Below, piece by piece: positions 16,390-30,989 of a stretch of 32,566 nucleotides of DNA. How positions within the stretch are numbered: position 1 is the first letter of the stretch; every line of letters starts with the position of its first letter. The translations under genes were made by a program, and so were the position numbers. The notes beneath the pieces were generated by a model. It had not been told where the DNA came from, made no database searches, and saw only the letters and a program-made list of their open reading frames with translations. The DNA comes from a virus. The DNA lies in the UHGV virus genome UHGV-0085244. One strand, written 5' to 3'.

Positions 16390-17040
16390 TCAGCGGCTGT
16401 CATTGCGCAGTCTGCGCTCCAGCTGCTGTTTGTCTTTTTTCACGCCACAGCGGGGATCGAGCTGTAACGCATGGTTGAGATGATTAAGGGCGGACGCCGG
16501 ATTGCTTTCACTCAGGACAGCGCCAATCGCTTTATGCAGACGCGCCCGTGACTGGTCCGGCATATCCAGACCGTCTGTCAGCTCCAGCGTCTGCAGCAAC
16601 AGATCAGCATCAAAGCCGGTGGCGGCAAGCATTGCGCTCTGCGCGGCGTCTGCCATTTCCTCTGCCAGCACGGTCTGCACGTTGCGGTTACCCAGCGGCA
16701 TCACCCAGCCATGACGCAGGGCATGACGCCCGATCTCCAGCGCTCCGGCATAATCTCCGGCATCAATGCGCCACAGCATCACGTACATCAGCACGTCATC
16801 CTGTTGAGCGCCTCCGGCAGCCAGGACACCCTCTACCCAGGCGGCGTACTTCGGCAGCAGCTCCACCTTGATTTCCGCTTTTTTGACCGTGGACTGAACG
16901 CCCTTGAGACGGCGGCGGTCTTCCGCCAGTTGCAGCAGCATCAGGTCATAGCCCGATGCGTGGCGAACACTGCCGCCCTCGCGGGCGGCCTGTTCAGCCT
17001 GAACGCGCAGGCGATGCTGCCGTGCGGGACTCAGGCTCAT
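16390..17040 (-). CDS. M: Terminase small (endonuclease) subunit M
   Basis: 216-aa ORF, P2 gpM-like. Confidence 0.85.
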   Translation of the reverse strand: MSLSPARQHRLRVQAEQAAREGGSVRHASGYDLMLLQLAEDRRRLKGVQSTVKKAEIKVELLPKYAAWVEGVLAAGGAQQDDVLMYVMLWRIDAGDYAGALEIGRHALRHGWVMPLGNRNVQTVLAEEMADAAQSAMLAATGFDADLLLQTLELTDGLDMPDQSRARLHKAIGAVLSESNPASALNHLNHALQLDPRCGVKKDKQQLERRLRNDSR

Positions 17041-19088: not shown

Positions 19089-20855
19089 ATGAACACCACA
19101 CTGACACCCGCAGATCTCGATCCCCGTCGGCAGGCCATGCTGCTGTACTTTCAGGGATACCGCGTAGCCCGCATTGCTGAAATGCTGGGCGAGAAAGTTG
19201 CAACCGTTCACAGCTGGAAAAAACGCGACAAGTGGGGTGACTATGGGCCGCTGGATCAGATGCAGCTCACCACCGCCGCACGCTACTGCCAGCTCATTAT
19301 GAAGGAGCACAAAGAAGGGAAAGATTTCAAAGAGATTGACCTGCTGGCGCGCCAGTCGGAGCGCCACGCGCGGATCAGCAAGTTTAACAATGGCGGCAAC
19401 GAAGCCGACTTAAACCCTAACGTCGCCAACCGCAACAAAGGCCCGCGCCGTCAGCCGGAAAAGAATGTTTTCACCGATGAGCAGATTGAGAAGCTGGAAG
19501 AAATCTTCCATTCCTCCATGTTCAACTACCAGCGCCACTGGTGGGAAGCCGGAAAAGCCAACCGCATCCGCAACCTGCTGAAGTCACGCCAGATCGGCGC
19601 GACCTTTTACTTTGCCCGTGAAGCCCTGATTGACGCCCTGCTTACCGGACGTAACCAGATTTTCCTTTCCGCCAGTAAGGCACAGGCCCACGTCTTTAAA
19701 CAGTACATCATCGACTTCGCCAAAGAAGTGGAGGTGGAGCTGAAAGGCGATCCGATGGTGCTTCCCAACGGGGCCACTCTTTACTTCCTCGGCACCAATG
19801 CCCGCACGGCCCAGAGTTACCACGGCAACCTGTATCTGGATGAATATTTCTGGATACCGAAATTCCAGGAGCTGCGCAAAGTGGCTTCCGGTATGGCTAT
19901 TCACAAAAAATGGCGACAAACCTATTTTTCCACGCCATCCAGCCTGACCCACAGTGCTTATCCGTTCTGGTCCGGTGCACTGTTCAACCGTGGACGCAAC
20001 AAAGCCGACAAGGTGGACATCGACCTGTCCCATAGCAATCTGGCCCCCGGCCTGCTGTGCGCAGACGGGCAATACCGCCAGATAGTCACCGTGGAAGATG
20101 CGGTGCGCGGCGGCTGTAACCTGTTCGACCTTGACCAGTTGCGCATGGAGTACAGCCCGGACGAATACCAGAACCTGCTGATGTGCGAGTTCGTGGACGA
20201 TCTCGCGTCCGTGTTCCCGCTCAGCGAGCTGCAGGCGTGCATGGTGGACAGCTGGGAAGTCTGGACCGACTTTCATGCTCTGGCCCTGCGCCCGTTTGGC
20301 TGGCGCGAAGTGTGGATCGGTTATGACCCGGCAAAAGGTACGCAGAACGGCGACAGCGCCGGATGCGTGGTGGTGGCACCGCCAGCCGTGCCGGGCGGTA
20401 AGTTTCGCATTCTTGAGCGTCACCAGTGGCGCGGGATGGACTTCCGCGCCCAGGCTGACGCAATCAAAAAACTGACCGAGCAGTACAACGTGACCTACAT
20501 CGGCATCGACTCAACCGGCGTTGGTCACGGGGTTTACGAGAACGTGAAAGCGTTCTTTCCTGCCGTCCGGGAGTTTGTCTACAACCCCAACGTTAAAAAC
20601 GCCCTGGTACTCAAGGCCTACGACATTATCAGCCACCGCCGTCTGGAGTTTGACGCCGGACATACCGACATTGCGCAGTCATTTATGGCAATCCGTCGCA
20701 CCACCACCGCCAGTGGCAACCGCCCGACCTATGAAGCCAGCCGCAGCGAAGAAGCCAGCCACGCCGATCTGGCATGGGCAACGATGCACGCACTGTTTAA
20801 CGAACCGCTGCAGGGCGAATCCGCCAATACCAGCAATATTGTGGAGATTTTTTGA
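19089..20855 (+). CDS. P: Terminase large (ATPase) subunit P
   Basis: 588-aa ORF, P2 gpP-like; stop overlaps the Q start (TGATG). Confidence 0.9.
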   Translation: MNTTLTPADLDPRRQAMLLYFQGYRVARIAEMLGEKVATVHSWKKRDKWGDYGPLDQMQLTTAARYCQLIMKEHKEGKDFKEIDLLARQSERHARISKFNNGGNEADLNPNVANRNKGPRRQPEKNVFTDEQIEKLEEIFHSSMFNYQRHWWEAGKANRIRNLLKSRQIGATFYFAREALIDALLTGRNQIFLSASKAQAHVFKQYIIDFAKEVEVELKGDPMVLPNGATLYFLGTNARTAQSYHGNLYLDEYFWIPKFQELRKVASGMAIHKKWRQTYFSTPSSLTHSAYPFWSGALFNRGRNKADKVDIDLSHSNLAPGLLCADGQYRQIVTVEDAVRGGCNLFDLDQLRMEYSPDEYQNLLMCEFVDDLASVFPLSELQACMVDSWEVWTDFHALALRPFGWREVWIGYDPAKGTQNGDSAGCVVVAPPAVPGGKFRILERHQWRGMDFRAQADAIKKLTEQYNVTYIGIDSTGVGHGVYENVKAFFPAVREFVYNPNVKNALVLKAYDIISHRRLEFDAGHTDIAQSFMAIRRTTTASGNRPTYEASRSEEASHADLAWATMHALFNEPLQGESANTSNIVEIF

Positions 20856-21889
20856 TGGGAAAGAGTAAGAAGAACCGAGCTGCGGCGACGAAACAGATCC
20901 AGCTTAAAAGTCAAACTACAGCCGAAGCATTCAGCTTCGGCGATCCCGTTCCTGTTCTGGACCGCCGTGAACTGCTGGACTATGTGGAATGCGTACAGAT
21001 GGACCGTTGGTATGAGCCGCCCGTCAGCTTTGACGGACTGGCGCGCACCTTCCGCGCCGCCGTGCATCACAGTTCCCCGATTGCAGTAAAGTGCAACATT
21101 CTGACCAGTACCTATATCCCTCATCCGCTGCTCAGCCAGCAGGCTTTTTCGCGTTTTGTGCAGGACTATCTGGTATTTGGTAACGCCTACCTGGAGAAAC
21201 GCACGAACCGATTCGGTGAAGTTATCGCCCTTGAGCCTGCCCTGGCAAAATACACCCGACGTGGATTAGACCTGGATACCTACTGGTTTGTACAGTATGG
21301 CATGACCACGCAGCCCTATGAATTTACGCAGGGCAGCATCTTTCATCTGCTGGAGCCGGATATTAACCAGGAGATTTACGGGCTGCCAGGCTATCTCTCC
21401 GCCATCCCGTCAACCCTGCTCAACGAGTCCGCAACGCTGTTTCGCCGGAAGTATTACATCAACGGCAGCCACGCAGGTTTCATTATGTACATGACCGACG
21501 CAGCACAGAACCAGGAGGATGTGAACAATATCCGTCAGGCAATGAAAAGCGCCAAAGGACCGGGTAACTTCCGCAACCTGTTTATGTATTCGCCCAACGG
21601 CAAAAAGGACGGCATCCAGATCATCCCGTTATCAGAGGTTGCGGCGAAAGACGAGTTTCTTAACATCAAGAACGTTAGCCGCGATGACATGATGGCAGCG
21701 CACCGCGTGCCACCGCAGATGATGGGAATTATGCCGAGCAACGTTGGTGGGTTTGGAGACGTGGAAAAAGCTAGTCGAGTATTCGTTCGTAATGAATTGA
21801 TTCCACTTCAAAAAAGATTAATGGAATTAAATGAATGGCTTAATGACGAAATTATTCGTTTTGACGAATATAAATTAGGCGATGCTTGA
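20855..21889 (+). CDS. Q: Portal protein Q
   Basis: Track ORF 20852..21889 begins with TTG; ATG at 20855; P2 gpQ-like. Confidence 0.9.
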   Translation: MGKSKKNRAAATKQIQLKSQTTAEAFSFGDPVPVLDRRELLDYVECVQMDRWYEPPVSFDGLARTFRAAVHHSSPIAVKCNILTSTYIPHPLLSQQAFSRFVQDYLVFGNAYLEKRTNRFGEVIALEPALAKYTRRGLDLDTYWFVQYGMTTQPYEFTQGSIFHLLEPDINQEIYGLPGYLSAIPSTLLNESATLFRRKYYINGSHAGFIMYMTDAAQNQEDVNNIRQAMKSAKGPGNFRNLFMYSPNGKKDGIQIIPLSEVAAKDEFLNIKNVSRDDMMAAHRVPPQMMGIMPSNVGGFGDVEKASRVFVRNELIPLQKRLMELNEWLNDEIIRFDEYKLGDA

Positions 21890-21898
21890 TTAAAGCCT

Positions 21899-21932
21899 GT
21901 TTAAACTGGCTGTCGAAACAGCCAGTTTAAAC
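21899..21932. other. Perfect 15-bp-stem hairpin (4-nt loop) between convergent Q and the cargo operon; possible bidirectional terminator
   Basis: GTTTAAACTGGCTGT-CGAA-ACAGCCAGTTTAAAC; no flanking U-tract on either strand. Confidence 0.5.
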
Positions 21933-22775
21933 ACCGGCACCAATGAAATCGCCATATGAATCTTCTTCAAGGCTGATGTATTCCACCCTCCATTGATCCA
22001 TCCGCCTCAATGCATACAGGGAGAAATGAGTATCGGCAACAGCAATGCACGTATTCAATTCTATAAGCTCTGAATGTCCCAAGATTGGATCACCATAAAA
22101 CTTATAAAACAATGCCTTTAGATCAGAACAGGTTTGTTCAGCCGCCCCTCTGGCATCGGGGCCACCTTCAGTTGCATCATAAACAACATTGATAGAAAGC
22201 TCATATGGTATGCCTTCCTCAAGATCGTTAAATCTTTCTTCGCCCAAATCGAAAAAAACTCCGATCAAATGCTCTGCGTTTGTGGCGATAATGTCCGCAA
22301 CTTCTTTTTCGAAAATAAACTTTTTATCCTCGTCGTAAGCCCGCAAGCGCTCTTCAAACGAGTTAGGAAACGCTGGACGACCATACTTAGCTGCTAACCA
22401 TTGCTTAAGAGCTTGTTTCTCTTCTGTGCTAATGGAGAATGCCGGATCGTTTTCCTCACAACGGAAAGCTTCTTTAGAAATGATGACTTTTCTTTCATGC
22501 CGAAGCTCTACTGCGTTCTTCTTAGCACTTTCTGGGTTTTCAAAGCATAGATCGAGGATTCTCGGATGCTTAGCTCTTTTCATCTTGCTTGACCCCTTTT
22601 TCAAGGGGCCAAACATCAGTTCCACGTTTTTTTCAGAATTACTCTGTAAATCACAATCATGCGTTATAACTACAACTTTATGGTTCGTTTCATCAGGCTT
22701 CAGAAGTCCAAGTGAAACGGCATCATCATGTTTAAGAACATGCCCCTGACGCCATGATGTTCCTCGTACCAACAT
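21927..22775 (-). CDS. Hypothetical protein, third gene of the cargo operon; function unknown
   Basis: 282-aa ORF with ATG start 9 nt after the preceding stop; AT-rich; no P2/186 counterpart recognised. Confidence 0.7.
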   Translation of the reverse strand: MLVRGTSWRQGHVLKHDDAVSLGLLKPDETNHKVVVITHDCDLQSNSEKNVELMFGPLKKGSSKMKRAKHPRILDLCFENPESAKKNAVELRHERKVIISKEAFRCEENDPAFSISTEEKQALKQWLAAKYGRPAFPNSFEERLRAYDEDKKFIFEKEVADIIATNAEHLIGVFFDLGEERFNDLEEGIPYELSINVVYDATEGGPDARGAAEQTCSDLKALFYKFYGDPILGHSELIELNTCIAVADTHFSLYALRRMDQWRVEYISLEEDSYGDFIGAGV

Positions 22776-22784
22776 AAATGTGAT

Positions 22785-23447
22785 TTATTCCTCTACTGTT
22801 CTAGGAATTGAAATAGATGACTTCCAATCATCTGTCGGTTTCGCCTTGCTTGCTAAGTAATTGGTCGATTCAGCAGCTGCATTCATCGCTTTAGCTTCAT
22901 CAATCAGTACCTGAACTGGCTTGTTCCAATCCTCACCTTCTTTTATTAAGTCCATCAATGACCTACCATTGAATGCTTTCATTTTCACCAATAGCTTCGC
23001 ATCATTGAGTCCAGCTTTGGAAAAAGAGTCAGCAACATTACTGAGGTTGGTAATGAATTGGACTTTTGAAGCATCATCAGGCTGGTTCTCCCCTGACAAC
23101 CATTTATAGAGAGCCTGCCGAGTTATCCCCAAATCCTTAGCCAGTTCTGACATTGATGGAGACAGCACTTCTCGAATATTAGCCAAATGTTGGGCAACAT
23201 TCCTGACATCAACCTCAGGAGAAATTGCAGGCGTGTACGTTGACTCTATGGAATCAAATGCAAACTGAACCCTTGGCTGAACATACTGACGCCATTGCTT
23301 ATAAGCATTTACAGGGTATGAAGCCCCCGTACCAACTAATAGTAAAGATGCGGCGACAGCAACAACACCTGATACACATGAGCTTGACTGCGAATCTGGA
23401 GTATACCGATCTACAGAGCCTATGCTTCCAGTAGGAATTGCATACAT
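22785..23447 (-). CDS. XRE-family helix-turn-helix protein with N-terminal hydrophobic segment, second gene of the cargo operon
   Basis: HTH ...NVAQHLANIREVLSPSMSELAKDLGITRQALYKWLSGENQP; start placed at the ATG (MYAIPTG...) after a GGGGGTGA RBS; the track's longer form 22785..23555 would overlap the upstream gene by 89 nt; start uncertain. Confidence 0.65.
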   Translation of the reverse strand: MYAIPTGSIGSVDRYTPDSQSSSCVSGVVAVAASLLLVGTGASYPVNAYKQWRQYVQPRVQFAFDSIESTYTPAISPEVDVRNVAQHLANIREVLSPSMSELAKDLGITRQALYKWLSGENQPDDASKVQFITNLSNVADSFSKAGLNDAKLLVKMKAFNGRSLMDLIKEGEDWNKPVQVLIDEAKAMNAAAESTNYLASKAKPTDDWKSSISIPRTVEE

Positions 23448-23466
23448 TTTAGTCACCCCCGTTGTT

Positions 23467-24276
23467 TCAGTGCCATTTAGCACGGGCAAAATCTGAAACC
23501 ATGCCTTCAAATGCTTCTTTAACTTTACTATGCAACGAAAGAATCTGTTTTTCAATTAACTGCAAATCAGTTGACATGTTGCCTTCAACATAATGATCTG
23601 TATCAATTATTGCGTGCATACGATGTTCTGTATTACTAAATCTCGGCAGCGGCAGTAAACCATTAGGAATCATATCTGGCGGAAAACCTAGCTGACCATT
23701 CATCTTATGTATACGTGAAACCATAAATCCATTAGAGATCAGTGGCTCAACACATGTCTGATATACAGACTCTTGTATGGACTGTATTGGCGTCCATCCA
23801 AAATCAACACCATGAAGTTCCTTTACAAGATACTGCTCAATTGTTTCGCTTTTCTCAGGAAACACAGCATCCAAATATCGAAGCCCAATCCTGCTTACCA
23901 ACGATGGCTTAGCAAATTCAAGAACTTTGCTCAGACCAAGTATTAATGACGAGATGAAAGGTACATGATTATCATAATCTGTTGTATGGAACGTAATGAA
24001 ATCGTTGCCTAAAACAAAACCAGACCTTCTATCTGCATCAATCATCAACCAACTTGTCACAGGCTCAAATGAATGTACCGGTGGCTCATTGGGGTTTTTC
24101 ATTTCAAATTTCAGCTGAGTTGTATTGGAAACTTCAAATAAAGGAAATCCTTCAACTCTTAGCGCATCTTGTATGTCTGGAACATACTTACTCATTGCAG
24201 CTACTGGAGTAAACTTTACTTGCACCAATGCGTAGTAAACGGGCGCATTGGACATACGTTCGCTGTTAGTACTCAT
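23467..24276 (-). CDS. Hypothetical protein, first gene of the cargo operon; function unknown
   Basis: 269-aa ORF with AGGAGG RBS 5 nt before the ATG; N-terminus (SNAPVYYALVQVKF) faintly recalls an uncharacterised TIGR04255-type family, from memory and unverified. Confidence 0.7.
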   Translation of the reverse strand: MSTNSERMSNAPVYYALVQVKFTPVAAMSKYVPDIQDALRVEGFPLFEVSNTTQLKFEMKNPNEPPVHSFEPVTSWLMIDADRRSGFVLGNDFITFHTTDYDNHVPFISSLILGLSKVLEFAKPSLVSRIGLRYLDAVFPEKSETIEQYLVKELHGVDFGWTPIQSIQESVYQTCVEPLISNGFMVSRIHKMNGQLGFPPDMIPNGLLPLPRFSNTEHRMHAIIDTDHYVEGNMSTDLQLIEKQILSLHSKVKEAFEGMVSDFARAKWH

Positions 24277-24416
24277 GCCGCCCTCCTTGAAGTTGTTTCA
24301 TCTCATATCTCTCTATCTCACTAACTGTAGTTTACACATAGGTTGACACTTTCTCCATCATTAAGTTCACTATGACATCAATAGCCAAAACTCTTACATA
24401 ATCGCTTCGGCGCGCG

Positions 24417-24435
24417 CTCGTATCCCCGCCACGCC
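24417..24435 (-). other. Candidate cos site (cohesive-end sequence)
   Basis: Minus strand reads GGCGTGGCGGGGATACGAG; the first 13 nt match the 5' part of the P2/186 cohesive ends as I recall them; orientation is correct for a cos that reads toward Q. Confidence 0.5.
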
Positions 24436-24480
24436 TGCCCGCTTTATGTAGTGGTTTTCATGCACCTGCATGATCTACGC

Positions 24481-24504
24481 AAAAGCCCGCCAGTTCTGGC
24501 GGGC
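24481..24504 (-). terminator. Rho-independent terminator after the DinI-like gene
   Basis: Stem GCCCGCCAG / CTGGCGGGC with a 3-nt loop, followed on the minus strand by TTTT. Confidence 0.6.
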
Positions 24505-24639
24505 CTTAGCAAAAACGATCCTCAAACGATCATGCGATCTCATGCGGCATAGACATGCACTACAGAGCTAACGCCTCGCAAGGGCTCGTTGTTCAACCTT
24601 GCTGACGCCAGAAACAAGTTCAGACGCCAGCAACGTTTC

Positions 24640-24873
24640 TTAATGCAGCCAGCTGTCGTCTTCCCACACCTTCTGCATAATTTTCATCACTTGTTTTCTT
24701 TCTTCGTCCAGTTGCAGTCCGGTCAGTTCCACACCGTTAGAGCTACCTTTGCGGATACGAATTACCGTTTTGGGATACAGGGGGCGCAGATTGCGGTAAA
24801 GCTCGGATTCAAGGGCGTCCAGTGTAGACTGGCTAATCTTCTGCTCTTTATCGATCATTATTTCAATGCGCAT
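24640..24873 (-). CDS. DinI-family protein (Tum-like, possible SOS-dependent antirepressor component)
   Basis: MRIEIMIDKEQKISQSTLDALESELYRNLRPLYPKTVIRIRKGSSNGVELTGL...WEDDSWLH resembles DinI; GAGGTGA RBS before the ATG at 24873 (track ORF 24640..24945). Confidence 0.75.
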   Translation of the reverse strand: MRIEIMIDKEQKISQSTLDALESELYRNLRPLYPKTVIRIRKGSSNGVELTGLQLDEERKQVMKIMQKVWEDDSWLH

Positions 24874-24883
24874 AAAAGTCACC

Positions 24884-25072
24884 TCAGCTGATGACATCCA
24901 TTGAGCGGTTGTATTCATGGGTTCTGATTTTTGCCATGAGTTCATCTGTCAGTTCAGAAACCCACTGCAGGGCCAGCCCCTTCTCTTCATCACTACACTC
25001 ACTAGCCGCTACAAGCTTAAGAAAAAAATCAATGCGCTGGAGCTTCAAAGACTCCAAAAAATAGTCCTGCAT
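24884..25072 (-). CDS. Small hypothetical protein, first gene of the LexA-controlled operon
   Basis: 62-aa ORF with AGGAGG RBS, immediately downstream of the LexA box and ending just before the DinI-like gene RBS. Confidence 0.5.
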   Translation of the reverse strand: MQDYFLESLKLQRIDFFLKLVAASECSDEEKGLALQWVSELTDELMAKIRTHEYNRSMDVIS

Positions 25073-25112
25073 CTTTCCTCCTATGACACCAAAGCAATAC
25101 TGTATACATAAC

Positions 25113-25132
25113 CACTGTTTATATTTACAGTA
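25113..25132. promoter_or_regulatory. LexA operator (SOS box) upstream of the orf62 / DinI-like operon
   Basis: CACTGTTTATATTTACAGTA fits CTGT-N8-ACAG; an adjacent half-site TACTGTATACATAACC at about 25098-25113. Confidence 0.7.
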
Positions 25133-25224: not shown

Positions 25225-27639
25225 TTAATACAGATCCCGCCACTTATCATCTTCCTGCAAACGCTGGTTCCGATAGAAGATACGCAGGCCTGCTCCTGAC
25301 GGAATACTGCCACCGCGAAGGAGTAAATCGACCTCTTTCTCGCTTCCATCAAATCCTCTGGACTTCAGTTCATAGACGAGCTGCTGTCGCTGATGATCTG
25401 TAATTCGCTGTTTGTAGTCTCTACGCCGTTTCGGTTTCACCAGGCGTAACCTTGCAGCCAGTTCCCGGCGCTCTTTTTTGTTCATACTGTGCAGGTAATC
25501 GTGCAATTCCTTGTCATCCATGCAGGTGATATCCGTTCTGGTATCCCCATCAGCTGATTTGTCTTTCCCTTGTTGGTACAAATTTTCAGCAAGGGGACAG
25601 TTATTGCCACGAGTCCAAGGGGCGCAAGCGCCCTGGTCGGCTGCCGCCTCCTGAACGTCAACGGCCTTACGAACCATTTTCCACTTCACTACATGAGTGC
25701 AGATCTTGCCCTCTGCAATGGGTGACCAGATGCCATAAATACGAATACCGTGATCGCCATAGGCGGTTGGCTCTTCGTTGATTTCATAAGCGGTTCTGAT
25801 GAGGTGATATTTGCGGGGAACCAGTACGCCGCCCTGCTTCATGATGTAGGTGGCAAAACAACCAGCATCAGCAGCAGCCAGAATGGCATCAAGACGCGGG
25901 TTATCCAGTACCGGCGCACCTGCTTTTTTGTCACCCTGTTGCCTTGCCGCCTGACCAGCCAGCAAGCGAAGTTCACGGTAAGCCTGACGTCCCGGAATAC
26001 CAAAGAAGCGGAATTGCTGAACACGATGCAGAGACGCCCAGGCATTAACGTATTCAGCGTTATCACGCAGGGATTTACCCGTTTCCTTGCTGATCTCGCC
26101 AGCCAGACCACGCCCGTCAATGTTCTTACTGATGTATTTCGCGATGTAGCTTGTCGGCGTTCCTTTGCGCGGGTTTATCAGCTCAGATTTAAAGCGTGGA
26201 CCAGTGTTATTACCCAGTTCCTCGCGGTCTTCACGGATGGCAAACTTACGCAACAATGCAGTAATGGCGCGGCGGTCTTTTTTGCGCATGAAACACAACA
26301 GGTGCCAGTGAACTGTACCGTCATGATGCGGCTCAGCCACCCGCACGCCATACCAGCGCAACCCGGCTTTGTGCATCGCCTTACGAAATGCAGCAAACAT
26401 GCCGACCAGATAATCGCTGCTTTGTCTTACCGTCGCATTTGTCCAGGTTGGGTTTGGTCTGCCGTTATTGAGCGTGGAATGGAAACGTGACGGACAGGTA
26501 ATGGTGTAGAAAACGGCGCAGTCACCGCGCATTTCCGCGATAAGCTCCAGACCTTTAACACAGGCCATCATCTCATTGCGGCGGTGCGCCGGGTTGCTGC
26601 TGCTGGCGTTTACCACGTCTTCCATATCCAGCGTGTCGCCCTCTTCGTTCACCAGTTCATGAGAACGGAAAAACTCCAGTGACTTGCGGCGCTGCTCACG
26701 TTTATGCATCACGGCTTCATAGCTGACATAGGGAGATGCTTTTTTGCTGACCAGGCAGACAGCACGCAACTGCTCTTCCCGCCATTCGCAACGCATTTTC
26801 CATAATTTCCGGTACCACCAGTCGGCGCACAACATACGCGCCAGCGAACCCGGAATGAGTTCATAGGGCACGGGTTTACGGCGGTTTCTTTTCCGACGGA
26901 GTTGCTCAAACGCAGGCGGGATGACATCCAGACGCAGGGTTTCCGCTGCCACCTTTTCCCATGTCTTGCGGATTTCTTCTGGCTTAACGTCATCGGTGGC
27001 ATACAAATCACCACAAGCTGCATCAAGGCACATGCTCATATGCGCAGCGACAAGGGTAGACAGGCGTTTCACCTGATCCTGACTCATTTCAGGCAGAATC
27101 AGCAGGCCGTCCAGCCCTACATGGCTTGCCATAAAACGAAAAGATGCAGATAGCTGGCTGTCGCGTACATGCTCCAGTCGTTCCAGACATGGCTTAATCG
27201 TCTCACGTAAATAGCGGGAATAAGCCTTTGGCCTGCCCAGGCTGCTGAAGTATTCAATACGTTGCATCAGCGGCTTGCTGATATGGGAGGGCTGGGCGCT
27301 GACGTCTACCAGAATGACCATGTCCGGGTTAAAACGCTGCTGCTCATGCGCCAACTTTGCCCGGCTAATGAGCTTATCCTGCTCTATTTCGCGTTGGACA
27401 GGATCACGGGATTCATTAAAGAAATAACGCTCCCAGACCTGATCACTCAGTGCCTCGCGGCGCAGTTGTTCCTGCTCGTTATCGGCAGCGTACAGAGTGA
27501 TCAGGTTTGAAAGCGCAGAAACCGGCGCAACTTCCGCCGGGTCCAGATAAGGGTTAATGGCCTTTTTCGGGCTGTTCCATGAGAACGATGCGGCAGCCTC
27601 TTTAAAGCCGCAGCAGTTGCTCATATCGGCATGGCTCAT
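25225..27639 (-). CDS. A: Replication initiation protein A (rolling-circle nicking endonuclease)
   Basis: 804-aa ORF with HWHLL (HUH-like) and YIAKYISK tyrosine motifs; P2 gpA-like. Confidence 0.9.
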
Positions 27640-30294: not shown

Positions 30295-30419
30295 GATGCA
30301 ACATTCCTCGTTTAATGATGATTAATCAGGACGAATACGGATCGTTTGTATTTTGTGAACACTATAAACATACGATCGCACAGTGAAATCGTCAAGATAA
30401 AAGTTCACTTGGAGTGACC
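30295..30419. promoter_or_regulatory. Divergent lysis/lysogeny promoter-operator region
   Basis: 125-bp AT-rich region between divergent Apl/Cox-like and CI-like genes; short inverted repeats (GTGAAC...GTTCAC, GATCGT...ACGATC). Confidence 0.45.
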
Positions 30420-30989
30420 ATGAATTTGGAGAAAGGCGGACGAGGCGCCATAGAGCGCATGGTAGAAGCTTATGGATTCAAGACTCGACAGGCGTTGTGC
30501 GATCATTTAGGAATCTCTAAAAGTACACTCGCCACACGCTACATGCGTGACTCATTCCCAGCAGAATGGGTAATCCAGTGCGCCCTTGAAACAGGCACCT
30601 CGCTTAATTGGCTCACAACCGGGCATGGTTCAAAGCAAACTTCAGGTAATACAAATACTATGGAAGTTGCTAAATATGTATTATCTGATGGGGCCTTGTG
30701 TGAAGACGGTTTTTATATTTTCGATAGAGAATTTCTACCGTCGGCATTCAAGAATCTTTTTGTAATCACAGATAATAATTCTGAATTTATTTGTGATAAG
30801 GAATTTGATGATATACGTGATGGTAAATGGGTAATAAGTATTGATGGCGAAATAACGATCCGTGACATTACTCGTTTACCCGGTGGAAGAATCTTCGTCG
30901 AGGGTGGAAACAGAGCCTTCGAATGTAAGATAGAAGACATTGAAATAATTGGTAAAATTATAAGTTTAACAGTCAAGTATGTTAAATAG
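30420..30989 (+). CDS. Immunity repressor (186 CI-like)
   Basis: About 190 aa with N-terminal HTH (QALCDHLGISKSTLATRYMRD); ATG at 30420 after GGAG (track start GTG at 30414); divergent from the early operon and co-directional with int. Confidence 0.7.
   Translation: MNLEKGGRGAIERMVEAYGFKTRQALCDHLGISKSTLATRYMRDSFPAEWVIQCALETGTSLNWLTTGHGSKQTSGNTNTMEVAKYVLSDGALCEDGFYIFDREFLPSAFKNLFVITDNNSEFICDKEFDDIRDGKWVISIDGEITIRDITRLPGGRIFVEGGNRAFECKIEDIEIIGKIISLTVKYVK

Follow-up and report, generated by a model that had tools for sequence, protein, structure and literature searches.

A predicted cohesive-end site and the accessory genes that adjoin it in a Fels-2/186-type prophage of the P2 family

The window, as we call here the whole stretch of 32,566 nucleotides of viral DNA that was analysed, very probably contains at positions 24417-24435 the DNA-packaging cos of a Fels-2/186-type prophage of the P2 family (Peduoviridae), as judged from its sequence homology to the cohesive ends of these phages. 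The cos variant, the slot for accessory genes at its side, and the gene cassette found in this slot are all already known in the literature. The terminase genes cognate to such a site, of the gpP and gpM types, are located on the same element according to their Pfam matches, and gpO and gpN were also identified in the window in this way. The site and the main phage genes around it are the following:

16390-17040, minus strand: small terminase gene of the gpM type (Pfam Phage_term_smal, E = 3e-41), the expected cos-recognition subunit
19089-20855, plus strand: large terminase gene of the gpP type (Pfam Terminase_5, Terminase_6N and Terminase_6C), the expected cos-nicking enzyme
20852-21889, plus strand: portal gene Q (Pfam Phage_portal), 92-96% identical to the portals of IMG/VR P2-like contigs
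24417-24435, minus strand: predicted 19-nt cohesive end (cosN equivalent), GGCGTGGCGGGGATACGAG, by homology to the 186, P2 and P4 ends
24410-24465, minus strand: cos core of 56 bp, consisting of GTGCATGAAAACCACTACATAAAGCGGGCA, then the 19-mer, then CGCGCGC
25225-27639, minus strand: replication gene A (Pfam Phage_GPA, E = 1e-127), the far boundary of the gpA-gpQ interval
30414-30989, plus strand: CI repressor gene of the 186 type (Pfam)

The predicted cos and its counterparts in P2, 186 and P4

The minus strand of the window, which runs in the conventional direction of the P2 map, reads GGCGTGGCGGGGATACGAG from position 24435 to 24417. The annotated cohesive ends are GGCGAGGCGGGGAAAGCAC in P2 (NC_001895, cosL 1-19) and GGCGTGGCGGGGAAAGCAT in 186 (NC_001317, cos 1-19). 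The window 19-mer is identical to the 186 cos at 15 of its 19 positions, the first 13 nt being all the same, and to the ends of P2 and P4 at 14/19 each, with 12 of the first 13 nt shared with P2. The last six bases set it apart, since it ends in TACGAG whereas P2, 186 and P4 end in AAGCAC or AAGCAT. A search with GGCGWGGCGGGGA, allowing up to one mismatch, gave a single match in the window versus 0.08 expected from shuffles. The site is located between Q (20852-21889, plus strand) and A (25225-27639, minus strand) with the 19-mer reading toward Q, and this order is that of the P2 and 186 records.

These results agree with the preliminary description of this DNA, which had read the same 19-mer from the minus strand at 24417-24435, had stated that its first 13 nt are shared with the P2/186 cos, and had taken the site to be oriented toward Q as in P2. 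The reading is borne out by the sequence, the 13-nt match is complete for 186 and holds at 12 of 13 positions for P2, and the orientation follows from a plus-strand Q and a minus-strand 19-mer. Alignment to the P2 and 186 cos regions, which it had proposed as a check, revealed homologous flanks and a core with 43-44 of 56 positions identical. Compared without gaps, the 56-bp core is identical to 186 at 44 positions, and to P2 and P4 at 43 each. Its counterpart is the 55-bp core reported by Ziermann and Calendar (1990, as cited in PMC5694545 and PMC2231350), a conserved stretch of some 55 bp enclosing the cohesive end that P2 and P4 have in common.

The window was then placed in a four-way alignment with P2, 186 and P4, each of them with its right and left ends joined. 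The common architecture spans about 150 bp and comprises three TGCAT-type repeats located around 100-125 nt upstream of the 19-mer, two more such repeats at about -37 and -28, and a GC-rich hairpin that is present in 186, P4 and the window. In order toward Q, AAAACC is followed by AAAG(C/T)GGGC(A/G), the 19-mer and (T/C)GCGCGC, and after this last motif similarity ends in all four sequences. The window thus shares with the cos of P2, 186 and P4 the map position between A and the portal gene, the orientation, a 19-nt unit starting GGCG(A/T)GGCGGGGA, the flanks AAAGYGGGCR and YGCGCGC, and a right-end arm with TGCAT-type repeats and AAAACC. It differs from P2 and 186 in the gap from cos to the portal gene, which is about 170 bp in these phages and 2.5 kb in the window.

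The cos of lambda (cosN plus cosB) served as a working analogy, as it is a staggered nick site with terminase-recognition repeats on one side and an unconstrained other side. The lambda site, however, has a 12-nt overhang and no sequence relationship to the site described here, which does not belong to the lambda family.

Conservation among relatives and limits of the cos cassette

We examined 160 loci encoding relatives of the window portal, 80 of them in bacterial contigs taken as one genome per species and 80 in IMG/VR. The cos of these relatives was located by the pattern GGCGNGGCGGGG, such that positions 1-12 were fixed and positions 13-19 constituted the free test. A single copy of the pattern was present in the interval from Q to A in 138 of the 160 loci, and the 22 loci without a unique match were short contigs or had a more divergent cos. 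Among the located sites the free positions were near-invariant (TACGAG), and the identical 19-mer occupied the same map position in 105 of the 138 loci. In every one of these 105 the portal was at least 85% identical to that of the window; more divergent variants of the 19-mer occurred with less similar portals.

The TACGAG-type variant is already described in SEN8 and Cartapus, where it is labelled putative, and no experiment that mapped DNA ends at this variant was found. For Salmonella phage SEN8, the putative cos given in the literature (PMC5427200) is ggcgtggcggggatacgag, identical to the window 19-mer, and the SEN8 record (KT630647.2) starts with the 19-mer, labelled 'putative cos site', and ends one base before it, being linearised at the predicted nick. 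In the record of Escherichia phage Cartapus, the start is annotated as 'putative cos site, homologous to the cos of P2 phage' and agrees with the window along 58 nt. Over 61 nt spanning cos, identity is 98-100% in Fels-2, SopEPhi and Cartapus, and the Fels-2 group as a whole (SEN8, Fels-2, SopEPhi, RE-2010 and Cartapus) resembles the window both in its putative cos and in having accessory genes between cos and Q. No P4-like satellite was found with a TACGAG-type cos: the 119 IMG/VR loci with the exact 36-mer were all P2-like or unclassifiable, and psu, sid, delta and alpha had no matches in them. A cloned P4-like sequence from Klebsiella pneumoniae SB5442, listed in Table S2A of Rousset et al. 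(2022), has a different cohesive-end variant, GGCGTGGCGGGGAGAGCAT, which suggests that the cos variants of satellites diversify along with their helpers.

The conserved DNA around the 19-mer has the following parts:

24410-24561, minus strand: whole conserved cos cassette of about 152 bp, in which the 19-mer is flanked by an arm of 126 bp toward A and by 7 bp toward Q
24554-24558, 24541-24545, 24531-24535, 24468-24472 (inverted) and 24459-24463: five GCATG/CATGC repeats of the A-side arm (24459-24558)
24479-24510, minus strand: GC-rich hairpin with a T-run (GGCCCGCCAGAACTGGCGGGCTTTTGC), an inverted repeat within the cos cassette seen in the sequence and in its fold

The limits of the cassette were drawn from an information profile of 132 distinct contexts anchored on the 19-mer, in which information content is high from about -120 to 7 nt past the 19-mer (CGCGCGC) and about zero from there on. 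Of 131 loci, 120 have BLAST homology blocks spanning cos that stop 5-22 nt beyond the 19-mer (mode 7), and the A-side end of the blocks falls at -123 to -129 in 96 of the 131; in most of the remaining loci the A-side homology runs on into DinI, as it does in the window. Both sides of 24410-24561 are therefore bordered by variable DNA in the relatives, and the cassette in the window is nearly a base-for-base match to the consensus of the 132.

Five copies of GCATG/CATGC in 126 nt, versus 0.23 expected from the window-wide density (about 20-fold), make the A-side arm the densest cluster of this motif in the window. As TGCAT repeats are found at equivalent places in P2, 186 and P4, we regard the GCATG repeats by analogy as candidate recognition sites of the gpM small terminase, equivalent to cosB. 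The hairpin and T-run at 24479-24510 are kept in the relatives according to the information profile and are likely to terminate rightward transcription that arrives from the DinI operon, i.e. from the A side. In 186, the annotated terminators t95a and t95b occupy the same interval, downstream of tum and before cos. A second, imperfect inverted repeat of 19 nt is located at 24595-24637, directly after the DinI stop codon, and holds the direct repeat GACGCCAG(A/C)AAC twice. This repeat may be a first, partial terminator comparable to t95a of 186, upstream of the stronger hairpin at 24479-24510.

P2 packages its DNA from covalently closed circles. The packaging substrate of P4 is likewise a covalently closed circle, whose 55-bp cos is cut to yield 19-nt cohesive ends, and lambda packages from concatemers where P4 and P2 use monomeric circles (PMC2231350). 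By analogy with P2, 186 and P4, the gpM homologue (16390-17040) would recognise the A-side arm with its GCATG repeats, and the gpP homologue (19089-20855) would introduce two nicks 19 nt apart in the circular phage DNA, at bonds that we infer from the counterpart sites. The 186 record places the top-strand cut at the 5' end of the 19-mer and the bottom-strand cut at the 3' end; with the same cuts here, the cargo would come first within the left virion end. That end would begin with the 5' single-stranded extension GGCGTGGCGGGGATACGAG; CGCGCGC would come next and the cargo operon immediately after it, and the right end would finish ...ATAAAGCGGGCA, just past the terminator of the DinI operon. 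All that the terminase requires would be contained in the 152 bp of 24410-24561, a cassette that extends past the 19-mer toward Q by 7 bp only. With the recognition determinants almost wholly on the right-end arm, the DNA just left of the nick would be unconstrained and free to vary, and for this reason cargo could start 8 bp from the 19-mer.

That the cos homologue is genuine but out of use, either in a defective prophage or through inactivation of this copy, seems improbable to us. Nothing in the window demonstrates activity, and the window may lack part of the prophage as its left edge falls in the tail genes; nevertheless, a cassette of 152 bp that follows the consensus of 132 distinct relatives so closely, full-length terminase, portal, scaffold, capsid, gpA and CI genes with strong family matches, and a surrounding of cos in which neither an IS element nor a frameshift was seen argue against this reading. 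A fortuitous GC-rich resemblance to the P2/186 end, with the true packaging site elsewhere, was rejected and is effectively refuted by the comparative data: although the contiguous match to 186 is limited to 13 bases and the six final bases of the 19-mer differ, the homology covers about 150 bp at the canonical position and orientation, the one match in the window compares with the 0.08 expected and recurs at the same place in 138 loci, and the cos annotated in SEN8 has the identical sequence.

Genes on the Q side and on the A side of cos

The DNA between the predicted cos and Q contains the following features:

21890-24409, minus strand: Q-side cargo island of 2.52 kb and low GC, a three-gene cassette transcribed from cos toward Q
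23467-24276, minus strand: cargo gene 1, 269 aa, a TIGR04255-family protein (NCBIfam TIGR04255, E = 2.5e-54)
22785-23555, minus strand: cargo gene 2, an XRE-type helix-turn-helix protein (mechanical ORF of 256 aa)
21927-22775, minus strand: cargo gene 3, 282 aa and without assigned family, with a motif HDCD at residues 39-42 that is invariant in the alignment
21900-21931: perfect 14-bp inverted repeat (TTTAAACTGGCTGT cgaa ACAGCCAGTTTAAA) between the convergent Q and cargo gene 3

The composition profile gives a GC content of 38-45% for 21890-24409 versus 52-57% for the backbone and flanking phage genes, a drop of about 12 points. Homology of the cargo region to the relatives breaks at cos+7 on one side and within the last 10-50 nt of Q on the other. 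At this 3' end of the portal gene (21840-21889), where homology to the relatives is lost, the extreme C-terminus of Q appears from the sequence to have been exchanged together with the adjacent cargo.

Cargo gene 1 had no Pfam, PADLOC, PHROG or PDB sequence match, and TIGR04255 was not found as a name in the full-text literature. The product of cargo gene 2 matches Pfam HTH_3 (E = 6.6e-5) and phrog_8, a transcriptional regulator (E = 4e-15); its translation probably starts at the ATG near 23447, in agreement with protein 2 of Table S5B of Rousset et al., which begins MYAIPTG. Cargo gene 3 had no Pfam, PADLOC or PDB sequence match and belongs with 293 homologues of about 280 aa to a family without a Pfam model. 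The AF2 model of its product has a pLDDT of 79.7, and the best PDB matches of this model are MazF-family toxins (about 100-120 aa) over some 125 columns; the matches are weak (best Foldseek E = 6e-3), and we take a MazF-like fold as a lead suggested by the model. The inverted repeat at 21900-21931 is a candidate bidirectional terminator equivalent to tQ, and in P2 and 186 the terminators tQ and tW are annotated between Q/W and cos. The promoter scan found no sigma-70-like promoter between cos and the first cargo ATG.

The cassette of the window is system #59 ('HTH_31', 69 occurrences) of Table S5B of Rousset et al. (2022), and its genes 1-3 agree with the listed proteins nearly residue for residue. 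System #59 does not appear among those whose tests the main text of that article describes, nor in the portion of its Table S2A that was consulted. We also considered whether the cassette is the validated three-gene anti-P1 system of Rousset et al., and this identity is unsupported in the material consulted, where Table S5B lists the cassette only as #59.

The unit formed by the TIGR04255, helix-turn-helix and 282-aa proteins is mobile and is also found outside phages. In Arenimonas it adjoins BrxR/WYL and an SNF2 helicase, and on plasmid-like contigs of Komagataeibacter it adjoins toxin-antitoxin genes and resolvases. An anti-phage or host-fitness role is a reasonable candidate for this cassette. 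The evidence regarding defence is circumstantial, consisting of the BrxR/WYL and toxin-antitoxin neighbourhoods elsewhere and the weak MazF-like match, with genes 1 and 3 lacking a PADLOC match.

Of 5426 complete E. coli genomes, 18 carry this cassette in the slot, with about 97% identity, and it also occurs there in 4 of 131 related loci, as would be expected if the 2.5-kb block between cos and Q were an ancestral, fixed part of the phage lineage and not exchangeable cargo. We find this hardly credible, however, and reject it on the loss of homology, the GC content and the non-phage copies. About 120 of the 131 relatives lose homology 5-22 bp past the 19-mer and carry other DNA there, as many as 106 distinct cargo starts are found among the relatives with cargo lengths of 0.5-6 kb, GC drops across the block by the 12 points or so mentioned above, and the three-gene unit occurs in Arenimonas and on the Komagataeibacter contigs as well.

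The interval between cos and A holds an SOS module:

24640-25130, minus strand: SOS module, made of a LexA box, a 62-aa ORF and a DinI/Tum-C-like gene
25115-25130, minus strand: LexA box CTGTTTATATTTACAG, a perfect match to CTGT-N8-ACAG
24884-25072, minus strand: 62-aa ORF with a phrog_698 match
24640-24945, minus strand: DinI/Tum-C-like gene (Pfam DinI, E = 1.3e-22)

The DinI-like gene is probably expressed as the 77-aa form from an internal Met; the relatives annotate a DinI gene of 234 nt at this A-side position. The DinI domain shares 41% identity with the 71-145 segment of 186 Tum, in the C-terminal half of that protein, and only this DinI-like half aligns, the N-terminal half of Tum not being detectable in the module. 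The 62-aa ORF was considered as the missing N-terminus of Tum and discarded, as no similarity was found. In sequence the module resembles the tum operon of 186, and an antirepressor role would be assigned to it only by this likeness; the p95-tum operon, between A and cos, is the positional counterpart of the LexA-DinI module of the window. Of 137 relatives, 87 have a DinI homologue in the interval from cos to A, and in the window no extra variable DNA separates DinI from the cos cassette, such that variable cargo is found on the Q side only. The DinI/Tum-like module is therefore better described as lineage-conserved than as swappable cargo.

The preliminary description had placed the cargo operon between cos and Q, at the left end of the packaged DNA, and had noted that old and tin of P2 are on the A side. 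The three genes at 21927-24276 (minus strand) are indeed in that interval and would sit at the left end, and the P2 record confirms the position of old and tin. It had also proposed cargo on both sides of cos. The Q-side operon and the DinI/Tum-like module with its LexA box are both present as proposed, but the module is conserved in the relatives as stated above and does not qualify as variable cargo.

The gpA-gpQ hotspot and the two sides of cos

Cargo between cos and Q is the normal layout for this phage lineage. At least 500 bp separate cos and Q in 125 of 137 relatives, and over the 138 loci the distance from the Q stop codon to cos has a median of 1665 bp, with the compact P2/186 arrangement (less than 250 bp) in 12 only. 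Extra DNA on the two sides of cos could be classified in 123 of the 137 relatives: it was found on both sides in 77, on the Q side only in 37, as in the window, on the A side only in 8, and on neither side in 1. The portal proteins of the relatives with the 106 distinct Q-side cargos are 60-100% identical to that of the window.

A cos-proximal defence hotspot between gpA and gpQ of P2-like phages, as well as the psu-int hotspot of P4, was described by Rousset et al. (2022; PMC9122126), and in the parts of that article consulted gpA-gpQ is treated as one locus, without separating the sides of cos. The cosL-Q position was reported as a hotspot where foreign genes are picked up in the study of Ralstonia phage phiRSY1 (PMC5694545, citing Dodd and Egan, 1996 and Nakayama, 1999). 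The cargo of the window fits the gpA-gpQ hotspot, as it adjoins cos, starts 8 bp from the 19-mer, and has variable content between conserved flanks.

The cos-Q slot contains STM2723.1 in Fels-2, orf14 and orf15 in SopEPhi, a hypothetical protein and an HNH endonuclease in SEN8, a DUF4145 protein in Cartapus, a Ymh-domain protein in vB_EcoM-813R9, and a TIR protein in 500465-1. In phiCTX, the ctx toxin gene is located just inside cosL and is transcribed away from cos in the direction of Q, with terminators and the convergent portal gene beyond it, in this order; unlike the window, phiCTX has a different host, an annotated cosL of 21 nt, and a toxin cargo with annotated promoter and terminators. 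In P4, gop-beta-cII begins just inside cosL and, as in the window, variable DNA starts a few bp past the cohesive end. That the records of SEN8, Cartapus, SopEPhi and phiCTX share the slot suggests that a layout with cargo beside cos is compatible with packaging.

Since the cos cassette is sharply bounded on both sides, the gpA-gpQ hotspot of the literature consists physically of two slots, one on each side of cos. It is possible, if rather doubtful, that these are two cargo slots under different rules, split by a self-contained and transcriptionally insulated cos cassette of 152 bp. With orientation taken from the longest ORF alone, the direction is from cos to Q for 103 of the 106 distinct cargos on the Q side (binomial p about 5e-27, for cases that are not phylogenetically independent), and A-side cargos are of mixed orientation, 36 toward cos and 24 away from it (shared ancestry uncorrected). 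The terminator of the cassette is on the A side only, and shielding from the Q side would depend on the orientation of the cargo and on the terminator that adjoins Q. One reading of this is that cos must be shielded from transcription.

A separate treatment of the two sides of cos was not found in the portions of Rousset et al. (2022) and of the 2026 NAR follow-up that were consulted. Concerning the polarity of P2 packaging and ejection, the passages of the literature found cite Chattoraj and Inman (1974) without stating the polarity, and we mention only as speculation that the left end enters the cell first. If the asymmetry between the two slots was selected, possible reasons are the avoidance of transcription across cos, the left end being the last DNA into the capsid and the first out, or cohesive ends that seed cargo exchange, as Rousset et al. 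speculated.

The location of cos would fix the ends of the packaged genome and puts the three-gene cassette in a recognised accessory-gene slot. The understanding of packaging and of the hotspot in the P2 family is unchanged by it, and what is added is a modest refinement of a known hotspot. The precise limits of the cos cassette for this lineage (24410-24561) and the strong orientation bias on the Q side were obtained as by-products; if selection is behind this asymmetry, it may amount to a design rule for the accessory loci of P2-family phages.
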